This document shows, piece by piece, positions 3,341-27,570 of a stretch of DNA of 36,723 nt. The notes under the pieces were generated by a model, which was given only the letters and a program-made list of their open reading frames with translations, did no database searches and was not told the DNA's origin. Source of the DNA: an uncultured Candidatus Saccharibacteria bacterium (GTDB lineage Bacteria; Patescibacteriota; Minisyncoccia; UBA10092); NCBI GenBank assembly GCA_964553885.1, contig CAZKLP010000004.1:1-36723 (forward strand), written 5' to 3'. The first letter of the stretch is position 1; the number at the start of each line of letters is the position of its first letter. The translations under genes and the position numbers were made by a program.

Positions 3341-3462
3341 AAATAATTTTCCTCTAGATATTTTTTTTCCTTGTCTGCCATTTCATTCTCCACTCTTAAA
3401 TTGTTAAATATCAAGTCGTTAAAGTTAATATAAAATACTACGCTAGTAATAAATATGTTAAG

Positions 3463-3496
3463 TTATACTATAAAAACGATCGTTTTTATAGTATAA
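3463..3496. repeat. 34-bp perfect palindrome centred on CGATCG (site A)
   Basis: ttatactataaaaacga|tcgtttttatagtataa. Its first 23 nt are identical to 4127-4149. Confidence 0.9.
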
Positions 3497-3544
3497 GTAA
3501 AATTAAAATTTACCTTATATTCAACGTGGCAATCGCAACAGCAA

Positions 3545-4096
3545 TCACAAATAGAATTTTTGTTTAAGCCACTCGTCGCCTTCGATTTTTTGAGCTTCAA
3601 TAAAATTTATATAAGGGCCGACTTTAAAAATTTCTTCAATAAATTGAATTTCGCTAAGGCATGGATACGGATAAATAAATACGCTTTTCTGCAATTGATA
3701 AAATCCCAATTCTTTTAACTTCAAACGCAGAGCGTTGCGCGCGATTTTTTCGCCTTCCGGGATATCAAAGATTACAATCCGCCAAATGCCATCCCATTTT
3801 TTTGGTTTTTTGATCTCTAAACTATCAAGATTATATTTTAATAATTTTTCCCTGCCCTTTTCTAAAATAACTATTTTAGAAATTTCTCCATCTTCTTTAA
3901 AATCAATTAATCTGTCTCGTTTCATCGCTTTTATTGATTTTACAAAACTTTGTTTCTTGGTCTTAAACTTTTTAATTAACTTAATCAAGGGCCTAAACAT
4001 TTCGGCAGACCCTGGTAATACCATTACAGTGGTAATTACAAATCCAGCGCCTAGGACTAATAAAATTTGTTTTGTTAGTTCCCCTCTTTTATTCAT
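3545..4096 (-). CDS. PaaX/Cas2-like fold putative DNA-binding protein, paralog 1
   Basis: WDGIWRIVIFDIPEGEKIARNALRLKLKELGFYQLQKSVFIYPYP signature, with an N-terminal hydrophobic segment. TGA stop. Confidence 0.7.
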   Translation of the reverse strand: MNKRGELTKQILLVLGAGFVITTVMVLPGSAEMFRPLIKLIKKFKTKKQSFVKSIKAMKRDRLIDFKEDGEISKIVILEKGREKLLKYNLDSLEIKKPKKWDGIWRIVIFDIPEGEKIARNALRLKLKELGFYQLQKSVFIYPYPCLSEIQFIEEIFKVGPYINFIEAQKIEGDEWLKQKFYL

Positions 4097-4126
4097 ACCT
4101 TAAAATATTTATTTTATAATTCATGA

Positions 4127-4160
4127 TTATACTATAAAAACGATCGTTTAGTTAGTATAA
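4127..4160. repeat. Imperfect CGATCG-centred palindrome (site B), copy of site A
   Basis: ttatactataaaaacgatcgtttagttagtataa, 31 nt upstream of the paralog 1 ATG. It overlaps a minus-strand TATAAT. Confidence 0.9.
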
Positions 4161-4180
4161 ATTCAATTATTTATCTTTTA

Positions 4181-6156: not shown

Positions 6157-6807
6157 ATGTATCCTAAACCAATCCAAAATTTTATTGAAAAGTTTTCAAA
6201 ATTGCCAGGCGTTGGCCCGCGTCAGGCCGCCCGATTGGCTTTTTGGCTGCTTAATGGCCCGAAAGAAATTCGCCAAAATATAAAGCATGCGCTTGAGAGT
6301 TTGGATAAAGATGCTCGAACGTGCGAGTTATGCCATTATGTAATTGAAAATAATGGAAATAATCAATGCCATTTTTGCGACAATCCCACGCGCGACCACG
6401 CGATTATTTGCGTTGTTGAAAAAGAAACCGACTTGGCAACCATTGAAAAATCCGAAGCTTATAAGGGCCTATATCATGTTTTAGGCGGATTATTTTCGGC
6501 TCTGGATACCTCGGTGCCAAAAAATCTGAAAATACCGGAGCTCGTAAAAAGAATTGAAAATTCTCAGTCAAAGGCGGACCAGTTTCTGGCTGGAAAAAAA
6601 GGCGATAAAAAAATAGAAGAAATCATCTTGGCAATTTCTCCCACTCACGAAGGAGATTTAACCGCTTATTATTTGGAAAAATTATTAAAACCGCTAAAAG
6701 TCAAAATAACCCGCCTCGGGCGAGGCCTTCCTTACGGCTCCGACGTGGAATTCGCCGACGCCAAAACTTTATCGGGAGCTCTCGAAAATAGAAAAGAAAT
6801 AAAATAA
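6157..6807 (+). CDS. recR: Recombination protein RecR
   Basis: HhH motif LPGVGPRQAARLAF, Cys4 finger CELC..CHFC, Toprim segment ICVVEKETDL. Carries an extra segment NSQSKADQFLAGKKGDKK. Confidence 0.9.
   Translation: MYPKPIQNFIEKFSKLPGVGPRQAARLAFWLLNGPKEIRQNIKHALESLDKDARTCELCHYVIENNGNNQCHFCDNPTRDHAIICVVEKETDLATIEKSEAYKGLYHVLGGLFSALDTSVPKNLKIPELVKRIENSQSKADQFLAGKKGDKKIEEIILAISPTHEGDLTAYYLEKLLKPLKVKITRLGRGLPYGSDVEFADAKTLSGALENRKEIK
6561..6596 (+). repeat. GC-rich twin-hairpin mini-element, copy R (inside recR)
   Basis: ttctcagtcaaaggcggaccagtttctggctggaaa. It shares an exact 14-mer (caaaggcggaccag) and an exact 11-mer (tctggctggaa) with the ddl copy. Confidence 0.85.
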
Positions 6808-6826
6808 CCCCGCAGTTGCGGGGTTA
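6805..6826. terminator. Bidirectional hairpin between recR and rplU
   Basis: taaccccgca-gt-tgcggggtta, flanked by A and T runs. Confidence 0.7.
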
Positions 6827-7132
6827 TTTTATTTCTAAAATTTCAACCTTGGTGAAATGCTGGCGATGGCCGGCTTTTTTCTTGTAACGGGTTTTAGAGT
6901 GGTAATGAAAAATAACGATTTTTTTACTTCGGCCCTGTTTTAAGACCTTAGCAGAAACCTTAGCGCCCTCAAGCATTGGCGCTCCTATTTTTACTTCTTT
7001 ATCGGCGACTAATAATACTTTATCAAAATCAAAGTTATCGCCTTCTTGGGCGTTGATTTTTTCAATCTTTAATTTATCCCCTTCTTTAATGAGATATTGT
7101 TTTCCTCCGGTTTTAATTACGGCAAGTTTCAT
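6824..7132 (-). CDS. rplU: 50S ribosomal protein L21
   Basis: MKLAVIKTGGKQYLIKEGDKLKIEK ... HRQHFTKVEI. Confidence 0.95.
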   Translation of the reverse strand: MKLAVIKTGGKQYLIKEGDKLKIEKINAQEGDNFDFDKVLLVADKEVKIGAPMLEGAKVSAKVLKQGRSKKIVIFHYHSKTRYKKKAGHRQHFTKVEILEIK

Positions 7133-11128: not shown

Positions 11129-12355
11129 ATGAATTCAACTCGCAATCTTTTATATCTTCTTCAGCTTGAAGAATATGATTTAAAACGCTTTAATGCTTGG
11201 TTAAAAAATAATCCCGGCCGCGTTGTTTTAGAAAAAAAAAGGAGAATTGACTGGACACTGAAAGCGCGACTAATTTTCATTATGTCCGGATTTTTTAGTA
11301 TTTTTACAAATGGACCAATGGCGATTAGAACGGCAACAAAAGTTTTGTCGCCAGTTGATGCTTTGGCCAAAAAAATTTTAGTGTTTCTGGCAAATCATAA
11401 AATAAATAAAATATCCGGCTTAACCGTTATTGGCATAACCGGCTCTTACGGAAAAACGACAACCAAAAACGCAATCGCACATGTATTAATACATAAATAT
11501 AAAACGCTAAAAACCGAAGGAAATTATAATACGCCTTTAGGTATCGCCAAAACCATTCTCCGAAATCTCCGGAAAAATCACGAGATTTTTGTCTGCGAAA
11601 TGGCCGCTTACCAAATTGGAGACATTAAAGCAATATCGGAATTAATAAAACCAGAAATTGGAATAGTTACTGCCGTCGGCCCAATGCATCTTGAAAGATT
11701 TGGTTCAGAAGAAAATATTCTAAAAACAAAGTTAGAACTTATTGAGTCGCTTCCAGAAAAAGGCATTGGTTTTCTGCCTAAAGAGTTAGAACCTCAATTA
11801 TCCAAATACTACCATAATCCAAATTATGGGAGTAAATGTAAAATAGAATTTTTTTCTTCAAAAGAAGAATTGATTATAAAAATCGGAAAATTTTTTGATA
11901 TGACGGAAGAAGAAATTTTTGGATATATTAAAACCGCGCCGCCAACTCCCCATCGGCAACAGATTATTAAAACTTCGGCCGGCATTACGATTATTGACGA
12001 TACTTATAATTCCAATCCGGCCGGATTTAATTCGGCTTTAGAACTTCTGAAAAACACTCCGGCACAAAGAAGAATTCTGGTTACGCCGGGGATGATTGAA
12101 CTTGGCAAAAAACAATTTGAATTAAATAAAGAAGCGGCGCGAAGCGCCGCAAAAATCGCCGACTATATAATCATAGTCGGCGAAACAAACAAAAAAGCGC
12201 TTAGAGAAGGATTGAAAGAAGTTTATGGGAACGATTATATTTCTAAAGTTTATGAAGTGATTGATTTAGACGCGGCCAAATCAAAACTTTCCGAACTCAC
12301 AATCCCCAATTCTGCAATTTTACTGGAAAACGACCTTCCCGATCATTATTTTTAA
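11129..12355 (+). CDS. murF: Mur ligase, MurF-like (UDP-MurNAc-tripeptide--D-Ala-D-Ala ligase)
   Basis: GITGSYGKTTTK P-loop and DDTYNSNP. Convergent with ddl. The N-terminal ~90 aa are atypical. Confidence 0.75.
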   Translation: MNSTRNLLYLLQLEEYDLKRFNAWLKNNPGRVVLEKKRRIDWTLKARLIFIMSGFFSIFTNGPMAIRTATKVLSPVDALAKKILVFLANHKINKISGLTVIGITGSYGKTTTKNAIAHVLIHKYKTLKTEGNYNTPLGIAKTILRNLRKNHEIFVCEMAAYQIGDIKAISELIKPEIGIVTAVGPMHLERFGSEENILKTKLELIESLPEKGIGFLPKELEPQLSKYYHNPNYGSKCKIEFFSSKEELIIKIGKFFDMTEEEIFGYIKTAPPTPHRQQIIKTSAGITIIDDTYNSNPAGFNSALELLKNTPAQRRILVTPGMIELGKKQFELNKEAARSAAKIADYIIIVGETNKKALREGLKEVYGNDYISKVYEVIDLDAAKSKLSELTIPNSAILLENDLPDHYF

Positions 12356-13530
12356 CGCTTAGCGCCGCCGACTTTTGAAATCAAATTGGAATCGTAACTG
12401 AAAGTCAGTTCTTGGCGTTTTTTGTGGCATTCGAAGCCAAGATTTATAAGCCGGTCTAACAATTCACTAAAACTAACCCCGGATTTTTCCCAGAGATAAA
12501 AAGATAAAGAACCCGGTAGAGTATTTATTTCAGTTATCCAAAAATCTTCGGTATCGAGACGAACCATAAAATCAACGCGGGCAATGCCCGCGGCATCAAT
12601 CGCCCAAAACGCTTTTTTTGCCGTTTCCTGAATTTTTTTAGTCAGTTCTTCGCTTATCGGCGCCGGCACAAATCGCGACAAACCAGCCATGCCTTTAATT
12701 TTGCCATCTTTCAAGTATTTATCTTCATAAGAAAGCATTTGTTCGCCTTTTATCGGCTGTTCGCAAACCGAGGCGATTAGTTCGTCGTTGCCCATCACCG
12801 AACAATTGATTTCAATAATTCCCTCTTTTCCCTCTTCAACAATAATCCGCCTGTCAAAACTGGAAGCGATTTCTATAGCGCTTTCCAGTTCTTTCAAGCC
12901 AGCGGCTTTGTTTATGGCAATACTTGAGCCTAAATTTGCCGGCTTAACAAAAACCGGATAACCAAGAGTTTCTTCAATATGTTTGATAATTCTGATCTTG
13001 TCGTTTTGCCATTCGTTTTTTAAAAACCAAACGTACTTCACAACCGGAATGTTATTATCTTTAAAAGCCGATTTTTGAATAATTTTATCCATGCCGACAG
13101 CCGAACCAGTAACGCCGCTTCCGATATAAGGAACGTCTGCCATTTCAAATATGCCTTGAATCGTCCCATCTTCACCATACGTGCCGTGAATAACGGGAAA
13201 ATAAATATCGGCTTTGATACTCTTAAAAAATTTAAACGCCGATTTCGGCGAAAGCGCTTTACTGCTTGGCGACGCTTCAAAAAAATATTCCTGCGCTTTT
13301 ATAGACGAATTCTTCCAGCCAGAGGCTGGTCCGCCTTTGGCGGAAAAACTCTCAATTTTCCCGAGCTTTTCATCAACCAGCCAGCGCCCTTTCTTATCTA
13401 TATAAACCGGAATAATATCATATTTATCGCGATTTATATTTTCAAAAACCTGCATCGCCGTCACAATAGAAACTTCATGCTCTACCGAGCGACTTCCGAA
13501 CACTATTGCGACTTTTAGTTTATTTGCCAT
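12352..13530 (-). CDS. ddl: D-alanine--D-alanine ligase
   Basis: KVAIVFGSRSVEHEVSIVTA, HGTYGEDGTIQG, ATP-grasp C-terminal half. Longer than usual, with an extra segment around SFSAKGGPASGWK. Confidence 0.92.
   Translation of the reverse strand: MANKLKVAIVFGSRSVEHEVSIVTAMQVFENINRDKYDIIPVYIDKKGRWLVDEKLGKIESFSAKGGPASGWKNSSIKAQEYFFEASPSSKALSPKSAFKFFKSIKADIYFPVIHGTYGEDGTIQGIFEMADVPYIGSGVTGSAVGMDKIIQKSAFKDNNIPVVKYVWFLKNEWQNDKIRIIKHIEETLGYPVFVKPANLGSSIAINKAAGLKELESAIEIASSFDRRIIVEEGKEGIIEINCSVMGNDELIASVCEQPIKGEQMLSYEDKYLKDGKIKGMAGLSRFVPAPISEELTKKIQETAKKAFWAIDAAGIARVDFMVRLDTEDFWITEINTLPGSLSFYLWEKSGVSFSELLDRLINLGFECHKKRQELTFSYDSNLISKVGGAKR
13312..13348 (-). repeat. GC-rich twin-hairpin mini-element, copy Y (inside ddl)
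   Basis: Minus strand reads tttttccgccaaaggcggaccagcctctggctggaag. It forms two perfect 6-bp hairpins, tccgcc-aaa-ggcgga and ccagcc-tct-ggctgg. Confidence 0.85.
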
Positions 13531-17124: not shown

Positions 17125-17143
17125 ATAATTTGGATTGATAGGC

Positions 17144-17184
17144 AAAAAAAATACAGCCACGCAATTGCGTGGCTGTATTTTTTT
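17144..17184. terminator. Bidirectional rho-independent terminator
   Basis: A7, then atacagccacgc-aatt-gcgtggctgtat, then T6. It lies immediately downstream of the RRM gene. Confidence 0.8.
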
Positions 17185-18772: not shown

Positions 18773-18808
18773 TTTTTCAGCCATAGGCGGATCAGCCTCT
18801 GGCTGAAA
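18773..18808 (+). repeat. GC-rich twin-hairpin mini-element, copy X (rplJ 3' end and rplJ-rplL spacer)
   Basis: tttttcagccataggcggatcagcctctggctgaaa. It matches the ddl copy at 32 of 36 positions by hand alignment. It contains the last five codons and the TGA stop of rplJ, read on the opposite strand. Confidence 0.85.
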
Positions 18809-19340
18809 ATTTACCTTTTATCTGAGTTAACACATTAATTAAATCGCGCGTATTGCCGAAAAGTACATTAACCAGTTCTATAAGAGGAGAAGCAATTATG
18901 CTAACAACGCGGCCGAGCAAAATTTCACGAGACGGCAGTTTTGCTATCTCTATAATTTCTGTTTTGTCATGCCAATTAAAACCTATAAAGCCGCCTAAAA
19001 TTTTTAACGCTTCATTTCCGCCCTTGGCGGCAATTTTTGAAAACTTGAAAATAGAACTGGCCGCCGGCACCGGATCGCCATAGCTGAAAACAACCCCCAC
19101 TTGCGTTTTTAATTTATCAAGATCAATACCTTTATAATCACCTAATTTTAAAACACGGCTTATCAATGTTTTTTTAGAAACTTTATACTCGGCGCCTATT
19201 TGTTTAAGCAAACGGCGCAATTCCATTGTTTTAGCAACGGAGAGTTTATTAAAATCAACCAAAATCGCCGCCTTGGCCCGGCTAAACTTGTCGGTTAAAT
19301 CTTTCAAAATATTATCTTTTTTTTCTCGCGTAATGGCCAT
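18792..19340 (-). CDS. rplJ: 50S ribosomal protein L10
   Basis: MAITREKKDNILKDLTDKFSRAKAAILVDFNKLSVAKTMELRRLL. Start trimmed to the ATG at 19340. Confidence 0.92.
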   Translation of the reverse strand: MAITREKKDNILKDLTDKFSRAKAAILVDFNKLSVAKTMELRRLLKQIGAEYKVSKKTLISRVLKLGDYKGIDLDKLKTQVGVVFSYGDPVPAASSIFKFSKIAAKGGNEALKILGGFIGFNWHDKTEIIEIAKLPSREILLGRVVSIIASPLIELVNVLFGNTRDLINVLTQIKGKFSARG

Positions 19341-19443
19341 AAAAAAATACGAGCAAACGCCCGCAGACACAAAACACATAAATGTCTTGATAATCCTCGG
19401 AGGGGCTTCTGCCTTTTGTCTGACCGCCCTCTGTCTGCGGAAT
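19341..19443 (-). promoter_or_regulatory. ~100-nt structured 5' leader of rplJ (possible L10 autoregulatory leader)
   Basis: GC-rich hairpin-forming segment between the predicted promoter and the rplJ ATG. Not matched to a covariance model. Confidence 0.3.
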
Positions 19444-24502: not shown

Positions 24503-24531
24503 TTTTTATAACTTTTACAATTTTTATAATT

Positions 24532-24555
24532 TTACCACTTAATTTCCGATCGGTT
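24532..24555. repeat. Left 24-bp inverted repeat (site C), CGATCG-containing
   Basis: ttaccacttaatttccgatcggtt is the exact reverse complement of 25265-25288. It is also part of a local imperfect palindrome. Confidence 0.9.
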
Positions 24556-24656
24556 ATTAAGTTGTTAAAAATTAAAATATACAATTAAAAGAAAAAGTGT
24601 AGTTTAAAAAATTAAAAAATTATTAGAGTACTTGCAATAAAAAATGTTCACGGTAC

Positions 24657-25190
24657 TTACAATAAATGGAATTTATTTTTAAGATCTAAATCAATATCCG
24701 TGTTTTTAACTCGCAAAAATCTGACATACGGCGAGAGATTGAAAATTTCAATTATAAAATCAATTTCATTTTTGCATTCGTAGGGATGAATAAATACGCT
24801 TTTTTGCACAGGATAAAATCCGAGTTCTTTTAATTTTTCAACCAACGCCACCCGTCCCCGTCTTTCATCTTCTGGAATATCAAAAATAACCAAGCGCCAA
24901 ATGCCGTCCCATATTATCGGTCTTTTTATCCGAATTTTGTCTAAATCATACTTTAAAATTCTCTTCTTCCCGCTGTCTGTTAAAATAATATTTACCGTTC
25001 CATCGCTACTTTCTTTGTAATCCACCATCTTTGACCGATACAATTCCCTTATCGCCCGTTTTAAATTTCTTTCATTGATTTTTTTTCACTCCTTGACCAT
25101 GCTTTTAACAATTCTAAAATAATGATCCGGCCTTCTTGTTAAACTCAAAGAAGCTCCTCCTATTAAGAGGAGCATAACTTTTTTAGACAT
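24657..25190 (-). pseudogene. PaaX/Cas2-like paralog 2, interrupted by an in-frame TGA
   Basis: The track ORF 24657..25043 (WDGIWRLVIFDIPEDERRGRVALVEKLKELGFYPVQKSVFIHPYE) continues upstream in frame as MSKKVMLLLIGGASLSLTRRPDHYFRIVKSMVKE-TGA-KKINERNLKRAIRELYRSK. The TGA is the complement of 25086-25088. Confidence 0.7.
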
Positions 25191-25237
25191 TGATCCCATC
25201 CGTTCCATATCTATAATTGTTTCGTATTTATAAAAAT

Positions 25238-25266
25238 AGTATATTTCAAAAATTACCACTTTGCAA
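25238..25266 (-). promoter_or_regulatory. Promoter of paralog 2, overlapped by palindrome site D
   Basis: Minus strand reads TTGCAA (25261-25266), a 17-nt spacer, TATACT (25238-25243). Confidence 0.5.
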
Positions 25267-25479
25267 CCGATCGGAAATTAAGTGGTAAATTACAAATATA
25301 ATAGAATTATTTTTAGTGAAAAGTTTGAAACGTTTTTGTATACGATAGGCATGCGCAAATCTTCTAAGCCATGTTCCTGTCGCATCGGAAGAAAGCGCCC
25401 AAATTAAATCCTGGTGTTGAACAAAAATTAACCGAAGAAGCTCTCGCAACAGCGCATTAGTCTTTTGCAGTTCGGTCAT
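25246..25479 (-). CDS. Doubtful small ORF (77 aa from the ATG at 25479)
   Basis: Only ORF evidence. The 3' end runs through palindrome site D. No recognisable family. Confidence 0.2.
   Translation of the reverse strand: MTELQKTNALLRELLRLIFVQHQDLIWALSSDATGTWLRRFAHAYRIQKRFKLFTKNNSIIFVIYHLISDRLQSGNF
25253..25288. repeat. Right inverted repeat / imperfect palindrome (site D), CGATCG-centred
   Basis: ttaccactttgcaaccgatcggaaattaagtggtaa. Its last 24 nt are the reverse complement of 24532-24555. Confidence 0.9.
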
Positions 25480-27457: not shown

Positions 27458-27527
27458 CGGTTTTACCTCTTATTTTAAAGATCAATAAAAAATAATTGTA
27501 AATCTAATAAATTGAAATAGCAAAAAT

Positions 27528-27557
27528 AAAACCGACCTGCAATTGCGGGTCGGTTTT
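27528..27557 (-). terminator. Rho-independent terminator after the KH-protein gene
   Basis: accgacctgc-aatt-gcgggtcggt with flanking A and T runs. Confidence 0.75.
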
Positions 27558-27570
27558 ATTTTTTCATGGA

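Follow-up and report, generated by a model that had tools for sequence, protein, structure and literature searches.

A 30-bp double-hairpin element in frame in ddl of an Azambacteria-like bacterium: one copy of a cross-phylum family with a candidate driver

The gene for D-alanine--D-alanine ligase (ddl) in the DNA analysed here (contig CAZKLP010000004.1, positions 1 to 36,723; this whole 36.7-kb stretch is "the window") contains a 30-bp element made of two adjoining hairpins. Orthologues of this ddl are annotated as Ddl of Candidatus Azambacteria: the window Ddl is of the Azambacteria type, and the host is an Azambacteria-like bacterium of the candidate phyla radiation (CPR). The locus has the following features, in which a caret marks the insertion point:

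12352..13530, minus strand: ddl, D-alanine--D-alanine ligase, 392 aa, the host gene (open reading frame, ORF; PDB Ddl matches to E = 7e-69)
13345..13350, minus strand: T-run agTTTT, the 5' half of the target TTT^AAG, present in empty alleles already
13315..13344, minus strand: 30-bp double-hairpin element in ddl, TCCGCC-AAA-GGCGGA + CCAGCC-TCT-GGCTGG; boundaries from comparison with the empty site gaaagtttt^aagaattt
13309..13314, minus strand: A-rich AAGAAT, the 3' half of the target, present in empty alleles already

The minus strand at 13312-13348 reads tttttccgccaaaggcggaccagcctctggctggaag, which the ddl ORF translates as FSAKGGPASGWK (residues 62-73); the peptide gained from the 30-bp element itself is SAKGGPASGW (residues 63-72). 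An earlier note on this DNA, made from the letters alone, had described twin perfect hairpins in a conspicuously GC-rich patch. Both descriptions are accurate: read directly from the minus strand, the element forms two adjoining perfect 6-bp stems with 3-nt loops, and the 30-bp core has 70% G+C, against about 40% in the region. The twin hairpin is the minimum-energy fold of the single-stranded DNA (-12.4 kcal/mol; z = -4.2; 0 of 200 shuffles as good). As RNA, a single long hairpin beats it (-22.5 kcal/mol): the outer arms are paired, the first arm and upstream T-run with the last arm and downstream A-run. The four arms are therefore interchangeable, arm 1 resembling arm 3 and arm 2 resembling arm 4.

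The element is not an intrinsic terminator, as no T-run follows the hairpins (the ddl sense strand continues AAGAAT, and the reverse strand AAAAAC). Nor does it belong to a CRISPR array (short palindromic repeats, clustered and regularly interspaced): copies in the window lie 5-7 kb apart, and adjoining modules elsewhere abut without spacers. Its anatomy likewise rules out an uptake sequence. At gathering thresholds, tRNAs were the sole Rfam 15 matches in the window and in 18 loci bearing the element, and at E <= 1 there was none in 13230-13430.

The earlier note had proposed an in-frame insertion tolerated in a surface loop, a proposal that we examined by comparing 120 Ddl homologues at the protein level and aligning 43 related ddl loci as DNA. 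Most Ddl orthologues at 70-85% identity read ...GKIESF-KDLKLKEI-KAPEY... (general form ESF-K(D/N)LKLK.I-KAPEY) and have no such segment; at the same place the window Ddl reads ESF-SAKGGPASGW-KNSSI-KAQEY. Far from being conserved across Ddl lineages, the segment is missing even from the two nearest relatives, which are 85% identical over the full length (P0002 and P0003). The DNA tells the same story more precisely: empty alleles read gaaagtttt^aagaattt and the window reads gagagtttt[TCCGCCAAAGGCGGACCAGCCTCTGGCTGG]aagaattc, a gain of exactly 30 bp, with no target-site duplication around it in the 43-locus alignment. In solved Ddl structures the SAKGGPASGW region has no counterpart, and in alignment with Staphylococcus aureus Ddl it falls in a gapped, variable stretch of the N-terminal domain. 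An AlphaFold2 model of the window Ddl, built with 41 homologues as input (mean predicted local distance difference test score, pLDDT, 82; predicted template-modelling score 0.83), gives residues 62-79 as coil without secondary structure, with pLDDT below 50 at 65-75; the remainder is confident. Together, these comparisons bear out the proposal of a tolerated in-frame insertion.

The window contains two further copies. Searching with a 17-base core pattern gives three sites, where shuffles predict 0.03, and an nhmmer scan of the window finds no copy besides those in ddl, recR, and rplJ:

6157..6807, plus strand: recR, host of the second copy (ORF; orthologue alignment)
6564..6593, plus strand: decayed copy TCAGTC-AAA-GGCGGA + CCAGTT-TCT-GGCTGG in recR, a lineage-specific insertion
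18792..19379, minus strand: rplJ, ribosomal protein L10; the element supplies its present last codons, ...FSARG*, in place of the old ones
18777..18806, plus strand: T..A variant TCAGCC-ATA-GGCGGA + TCAGCC-TCT-GGCTGA at the 3' end of rplJ, a lineage-specific insertion

The earlier note had counted matches of both copies to that in ddl. Its count for 18773-18808 (32 of 36) is correct; for 6561-6598, however, the figure is 32 of 38, not 30 of 35. It also ranked the ddl copy as the best preserved in the window, and rightly: this copy matches perfectly the C..G consensus found across phyla (below), whereas the recR copy folds as DNA no better than shuffles (z = -0.3), both stems having been lost. 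The recR copy is thus in neutral decay.

The copies are read in different ways by their host genes. As the earlier note had claimed, the recR copy is translated in another frame than that in ddl, as SQSKADQFLAGKK; this +1 frame yields (S)QSKADQFLAG, because the TTT^AAA junction splits a codon there. The recR empty site is gaaaattt^aaaaaaaa, and the element is missing in 11 of 11 recR orthologues. Compared with ddl, the element is turned round with respect to the host gene in rplJ, which reads the reverse complement. Here the insertion site (aaattt^aaaatt) lay a few codons ahead of the old stop. The element's own TGA, at 18792-18794 on the minus strand, is the present rplJ stop, and L10 now ends ...GKFSARG*; the old C-terminal codons, aaaaaggtcgtga, are stranded directly 3' of the element. 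Orthologues end ...K(T)KRS*.

Empty comparators are available for five sites (ddl, recR, rplJ, and two in other ddl loci, L126 and L134/L139). All five have the junction TTT^AAR, a gain of 30 bp, and zero duplication; a MITE (miniature transposable element with inverted repeats) is rejected on this last ground. A flank logo drawn from 72 copies of many genomes has T-T/C as its left-hand pattern and A-A/G as its right-hand one, with T at -2 in 65 of 72 and A or G at +2 in 70 of 72. Insertion occurs in either orientation, as seen in ddl versus rplJ and in L134/L139. Since the element is 30 bp long, the reading frame is never shifted; the added peptide, one of six, is set solely by the codon phase of the TTT^AAA junction and the orientation.

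The Ddl loop has been struck more than once. L126 (P0021) has an independent insertion 8 nt downstream, at aaaaattt^aaa, in another frame and read FPPKADSPMAK; its second hairpin, TTCGCC-TAT-GGCGAA, differs from CCAGCC/GGCTGG in three stem pairs, all of them compensated. L134 and L139 (P0056) carry the element in reverse orientation, read PAQGWSAFGG, at a second Ddl site, aaatttttt^aat. The corresponding second target is empty in the window (aaatttttt^aagagt, ~13160-13175, minus strand, ddl codons KFFKSI). In addition, many orthologues (L121-L124, P0046) have in this loop an in-frame insertion of another palindrome of 30 nt, CCGCTTAAATTTTGGAAAAATTTTCGGCGG, which is translated as PLKFWKNFRR or PPKFWRKFRR and apparently represents a second hairpin family of equal length.

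A scan for GGCGGANCAGNNTCTGGCTG over one genome per species (596 Gb) placed the element in a much wider setting; the counts that follow are among the matches listed. Random matches are estimated at ~70 for 17 specified bases in 596 Gb, and matches with free positions other than CC/TC, which came from GC-rich genomes and had unrelated flanks, were discarded as chance. At least about 70 full copies of TCCGCC-NNN-GGCGGA-Y-CAGCC-TCT-GGCTG-R were found. They occur in Patescibacteria (many classes), Omnitrophota, Planctomycetota, Elusimicrobia, Bacteroidota, Ignavibacteria, and Chloroflexota, as well as in one Leptospira metagenome-assembled genome (MAG) and several "Pseudomonadota" MAGs; several genomes have copies on multiple contigs. 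The earlier note thus understated the reach of its observation: this is a cross-phylum family and a recurrently struck Ddl loop, not a one-genome curiosity. An exact scan of IMG/VR viral contigs for the element with 25 specified bases gave 0 matches, and there is therefore no sign of carriage by phage. A literature search by sequence string and topic found no description of the element, nor of a bacterial counterpart of the mitochondrial double-hairpin elements discussed below; subscription journals were thinly covered, so an earlier description is possible.

The element comprises two 15-nt modules of the general form YCNGCC-NNN-GGCNGR. The closing pair of stem 2 covaries: T..A in 47 copies, C..G in 23, T..G in 2, and T..T in 1. 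The T..A variant is intergenic in 43 of its 47 copies, and in frame 0 it reads ...GGSASG-stop (TCA...TGA). The C..G variant lies in long ORFs in 13 of 23 copies, ten of them in frame 0 as SAxGGPASGW; the chance of at least 10 of 13 falling in one of six open frames is ~3e-6 (binomial). Presumably, only the C..G variant can persist in frame 0, because CCA...TGG reads Pro...Trp while T..A gives Ser...stop. Two sources of the frame bias are plausible: in AT-rich genomes TTT|AAA frequently falls in phase as Phe|Lys, and of the six peptides the Gly/Ser/Ala/Pro one is the least disruptive.

Hosts confirmed by Pfam are DnaJ, MiaA, RNase R, HisRS, NusB, TopA (two tandem modules), and an FAD-linked oxidase. 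In the topA gene concerned (L078), the tandem hairpin modules are read in two different frames of one protein, KISAKGGSASGGKDQKSPPKADQPLAENI. The miaA genes of a Berkelbacteria locus (L043) and a Magasanikiibacteriota locus (L074) have the element at the identical position, directly after the P-loop helix (...LAKEF-SAKGGPASGW-(D/N)G.EI.SADSRQVY); this is either a hot spot (gaattt^) or an old insertion. Elsewhere (L004, L063, L067, L079, and L101, from "Pseudomonadota" MAGs, along with L027, L042, and L060) the pair is at the tip of longer lineage-specific palindromes (ggatccccgc...gcggggatgac; cctgcctaccggcaggcagg), and appears to be nested within other repeat families.

Small hairpins are abundant in the window and related loci. 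In the window plus L121-L151 and L162 (311 kb), perfect 6-bp hairpins with 3-nt loops and GC cores number 78, against 2.8 in shuffles, or ~28-fold. Other recurrent stems in this DNA are CGGCGC/GCGCCG (14), AATCGC/GCGATT, and CCCGCC/GGCGGG, although some counts may be orthologous positions. One CGGCGC/GCGCCG hairpin is at window position 12135, in the Mur-ligase ORF beside ddl (11129..12355; Mur_ligase_M/C domains in related loci).

Five ddl alleles are filled at the same site and in the same frame: those of the window, P0006, P0022, P0050, and P0057. They are scattered over the Ddl tree, each beside empty alleles. (The tree is a neighbour-joining tree from which the variable region was excluded; it is crude, though the scatter is gross.) The stems of these alleles are nearly invariant, with two C-to-T changes that each leave a G-T pair (G-U in RNA); the loops vary (AAA/AGA/GAA and TCT/TTT/TAT). 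In pairwise comparisons of the five, third codon positions are 95% identical in stem codons versus 57% gene-wide, 56% in the 20 flanking codons per side, and 49% at invariant Ala/Gly/Pro/Ser/Thr/Val/Leu/Arg codons. A single ancient insertion, vertically inherited, is rejected by the scatter in the tree and by flanks as diverged as the whole gene; a recent recombination tract carrying the element is not supported, given the background divergence of the 20 codons on each side. Conservation of the stems needs repeated re-insertion from conserved masters, gene conversion with other copies as donors, or selection acting on the stems or their structure. Downstream of the element, the filled alleles have module-like fragments where the second TTT^AAA junction lies: several have ttcgcctatgg, and L179 has tccgccaaa. 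This points to repeated hits and partial deletions.

What might serve as a master? At an Ignavibacteria locus (L041), the hairpin pair stands between a 5' fragment of tRNA-Ser and a small GIY-YIG ORF, followed by an intact tRNA-Ser, and the whole unit is tandemly duplicated. A jackhmmer search of all fetched loci placed GIY-YIG ORFs in 10 of those selected for their hairpins. In six (L041, L111, L116, L066, L037, and L029) the ORF is at most ~100 nt from the element; in another (L027) it is at the end of a longer hairpin array. One locus selected through Ddl (L155) also has a GIY-YIG ORF beside related hairpins. Among the 120 ORFs nearest 70 elements, the recurrent Pfam families are GIY-YIG (4, plus 2 T5orf172) and the four-helix-bundle 23S_rRNA_IVP (4); the remainder are unrelated housekeeping families.

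Sampling in the reverse direction began from the protein: homologues of an 82-aa Uhrbacteria GIY-YIG protein are abundant in CPR bacteria, mostly 81 aa long, and frequently on very short contigs. Six were looked up, one of them at two places, giving six distinct loci. All six have the same arrangement: [tRNA-Asn positions 1 to ~29]-[hairpin pair]-[~6 more tRNA nt]-ATG...GIY-YIG ORF-[intact tRNA-Asn]. In five of the six, the hairpin pair is a variant of the same two modules (for example, TCCGCCAGAGGCGGA-CCAGCCTATGGCTGG in L183 and CCAGCCAAAGGCTGG-TCAGCCTATGGCTGA in L182). The 81-aa protein matches PF01541, and its nearest structures are those of the stand-alone UPF0213 proteins 1zg2 and 1ywl. 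It is a catalytic core only, without a DNA-binding domain, and scores under the threshold of the group I intron endonuclease model. These related loci have the layout of a free-standing homing cassette, a GIY-YIG ORF beside its target gene and a displaced target fragment; the window does not.

Some cassettes are more elaborate. On Moranbacteria-type contigs (L164-L171, ~1056-1746), 23S_rRNA_IVP and GIY-YIG ORFs are side by side between rpoD and tRNA-Asn, and the displaced tRNA fragment between the two ORFs is broken by hairpin modules at three different points. In L164 the 23S_rRNA_IVP ORF is directly upstream, and a second, inverted hairpin pair follows the GIY-YIG ORF. In L184 (1024-1365), a Y1_Tnp (PF01797) ORF is ~300 nt downstream of the GIY-YIG/tRNA-Asn cassette; ahead of this ORF are five perfect, unrelated hairpins and a further 3' fragment of a tRNA.

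The element resembles several known systems and belongs to none of them. Rickettsia palindromic elements (RPEs) are selfish palindromic repeats of ~100-150 bp, restricted to Rickettsia, that occur in frame in essential protein genes as well as in intergenic DNA; they are cited in a MITE review (PMC10969869). The element shares with them in-frame palindromic insertion into protein genes and a tolerated peptide at the protein surface, a resemblance that is functional only. Unlike an RPE, it is 30 bp long, is made of two 15-nt hairpins, has an Azambacteria-like CPR host and nearly unchanged copies in many phyla, and is unrelated in sequence.

REP sequences (repetitive extragenic palindromes) that are paired with REP-associated tyrosine transposases (RAYTs) bear an unpaired GTAG or CGTC tag at the palindrome end, and some REPs are intragenic, in replication and repair genes among others (PMC3733652, Di Nocera et al.). 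Similarities with REPs and REP doublets forming hairpins (REPINs) include GC-rich palindromes of 20-40 bp, a possibly high copy number, location of some copies inside genes, and, for REPs, a position flanking the gene for a trans-acting nuclease. As to dispersed copies of a short GC-rich palindrome, the window has three in 36.7 kb, and the 311 kb of related loci contain the 78 perfect GC-core hairpins given above. In contrast to the REP/RAYT systems, the element has no GTAG or CGTC tag, its hairpins are in tandem rather than inverted, its associated gene is GIY-YIG rather than Y1, and the family crosses phyla.

Double-hairpin elements (DHEs) of chytrid and Schizosaccharomyces mitochondria are GC-rich, ~30-40 nt long, and made of two adjoining hairpins; presumed mobile, they lie in intergenic DNA and rRNA genes of AT-rich genomes, and copies from different species are identical or differ just in the loops (PMC10085805). 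The present element is likewise a dispersed, GC-rich twin hairpin of ~30 nt, and its ddl alleles have conserved stems and vary chiefly in the loops. It is bacterial, however, and in frame in protein genes, whereas DHEs are mitochondrial and are reported in PMC10085805 from intergenic DNA and rRNA genes alone; no sequence relationship is expected, and the element is an analogue of DHEs rather than a member.

For the cassettes, the nearest parallels are phage T4 SegB, a homing enzyme of the GIY-YIG family encoded within a cluster of tRNA genes (PMC2330249), and non-intron insertions in CPR rRNA genes that encode GIY-YIG or 23S_rRNA_IVP proteins (PMC11270868). As in those systems, a small GIY-YIG gene is in or beside a structural RNA gene, target fragments are duplicated, and GIY-YIG and 23S_rRNA_IVP families recur, here beside the hairpins. 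The differences from free-standing GIY-YIG homing cassettes are an 81-aa catalytic core without a DNA-binding domain, a conserved hairpin pair alongside, and the occurrence of that pair on its own, in hundreds of copies.

These observations suggest that a small selfish element, a non-autonomous double hairpin, has left a copy in ddl that is tolerated as cargo, and that the masters of this element are on GIY-YIG/tRNA cassettes. We put the probability of this reading at roughly 0.7. The masters would be carried by horizontally spreading cassettes in which an 81-aa GIY-YIG (UPF0213-like) gene is directly 5' of a tRNA gene and the hairpin pair sits in the displaced 5' tRNA fragment. The GIY-YIG nuclease, or the break repair that it triggers, may move solitary hairpin pairs in trans; such mobilisation is no more than possible. 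As tRNA genes are near-universal targets, cassettes could cross phyla, which would leave near-identical hairpins across phyla. Structure-specific GIY-YIG enzymes recognise DNA structure. The minimal nuclease lacks a DNA-binding domain and so may do likewise, with the extruded hairpin or cruciform as its recognition signal; this is a speculation drawn from knowledge of the family. For the enzyme, the element in ddl would then have no role. Copies presumably persist only at places where adding ten residues or a new stop does no harm, such as the disordered Ddl loop, a linker of RecR, and the last codons of L10.

A broader proposal is distinctly more tentative: that the 15-nt modules are the cis-acting ends or landing pads of a phylum-crossing mobile system, one that combines GIY-YIG homing into tRNA genes, trans-mobilisation to TTT^AAA, and in-frame colonising of Ddl, RecR, L10, DnaJ, MiaA, HisRS, TopA, and NusB. 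Such a system would be a bacterial DHE counterpart with an identifiable driver.

Several points weigh against tolerated cargo moved from cassette-borne masters. The stems of the ddl alleles are far more conserved than neutral sites (95% versus 57% and 56% of third positions), and are therefore unlike neutral cargo descended from one old insertion. Jackhmmer finds no GIY-YIG gene within the 36.7-kb window. The tRNA insertion points (GCT^CAA, GTT^GAC, and TCG^GTT) fit TTT^AAR just loosely. The association of hairpins with GIY-YIG genes could be passive build-up in dispensable DNA such as pseudo-tRNA fragments. To our knowledge, characterised GIY-YIG enzymes are homing or repair nucleases, not transposases, and mobilisation of this kind has no biochemical precedent. 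Moreover, the Y1 transposase ORF near one cassette (L184) keeps a REP/RAYT-type mechanism alive.

That mechanism is the alternative that survives best, and we consider it unlikely: an HUH tyrosine transposase (RAYT, or similar to IS200/IS605 TnpA) would move the hairpin pair in trans, and the GIY-YIG link would be incidental. Duplication-free insertion beside a short sequence, together with small-hairpin ends, is the signature of IS200/IS605-type single-strand transposition, and the anatomy of the element, inserted without duplication beside a short preferred sequence, matches it. Nevertheless, the Y1_Tnp ORF of L184 is a single case, and no Y1_Tnp (RAYT) gene is among the recurrent families of the 120 ORFs nearest 70 elements. 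Neither end of the element has a GTAG or CGTC tag in the flank logo, and the element is near-identical across phyla, whereas REP/RAYT pairs are usually lineage-specific.

The stem conservation raises the question of function. The ddl copy might be kept as an mRNA or DNA hairpin that modulates expression of ddl or the dcw (division and cell wall) cluster, or as a Gly/Ser/Pro loop used by the enzyme. In the five filled alleles, synonymous sites are close to saturation (49-57% identical at third positions), against 95% identity in the stem codons; variation is seen in the loops, and both C-to-T changes in stems preserve G-T or G-U pairs. The covariation of the closing pair across phyla also speaks for this reading. 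Yet most Ddl orthologues, the closest included, work without the element, and sister lineages carry it in the same loop in another frame, orientation, or site. It is present in unrelated genes and in intergenic DNA as well, in either orientation to transcription. The recR copy is decaying, no Rfam family matches, and there is no T-run for termination. A retained function is on these grounds improbable.

The exact junction preference and the lack of target duplication would also be expected if the hairpins were not mobile, and were instead made repeatedly in place by template switching or fold-back repair at T-run/A-run junctions; the other palindromic 30-nt insertions in the same loop, such as CCGCTTAAATTTTGGAAAAATTTTCGGCGG, lend this idea some colour. 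Fold-back, however, copies local sequence. The presence of one and the same 30-nt sequence in dozens of unrelated contexts and phyla requires that it be copied, as from a template, from elements that already exist, and origin in place is very improbable. Finally, although this is a metagenome-type contig and repeats can mis-join, an assembly or chimera artefact is extremely improbable: ddl is intact and colinear on both sides of the insertion, and the same-site insertion is found in independent JGI, ENA, and Logan assemblies, each with its own substitutions.

Taken alone, the ddl copy is nothing out of the ordinary, a selfish repeat whose insertion is tolerated; it is the family that is unusual, being small, frame-neutral, and cross-phylum, with a defined target and a candidate driver. 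In-frame palindromic colonising of essential genes has been known mainly from Rickettsia and a few REP families. New here are a smaller unit, whose length of 2 x 15 nt guarantees the frame; a defined target, TTT^AAR, entered without duplication; and a sequence near-invariant across distant phyla, including reduced CPR genomes. If the link with GIY-YIG/tRNA cassettes is causal, it would provide a driver for hairpin elements, whose mobility has been unexplained since the mitochondrial DHEs, and would account in part for the insertion-rich proteins of CPR genomes and for their fragmented assemblies. A practical consequence concerns annotation: the peptides SAKGGPASGW, PPKADQPLAE, and PARGWSAFGG should be treated as scars of a mobile element and masked when sequences are aligned, when domains are annotated, and when novel insertions are called in CPR proteins.

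Other repeated features are present in the window. Two regions, 3449-4174 and 24531-25289, contain paralogous ORFs (3545..4096, minus strand, 183 aa; 24657..25043, minus strand, 128 aa) with a PaaX_M/Cas2-like domain. Both are bracketed by 35-48-bp inverted repeats with CGATCG, and a 134-nt stretch, 70% identical, is common to them; the impression is of a small cassette, bounded by inverted repeats, in two copies.

Terminator-like palindromes lie 3' of genes at 6793-6835, 17142-17184, and 27520-27562. They share the loop core GCAATTGC and have A-run/T-run flanks (for example, AAAAAATACAGCCACGCAATTGCGTGGCTGTATTTTTTT). Probably these three palindromes are intrinsic terminators that work in both directions, the conservation of their loop being odd.

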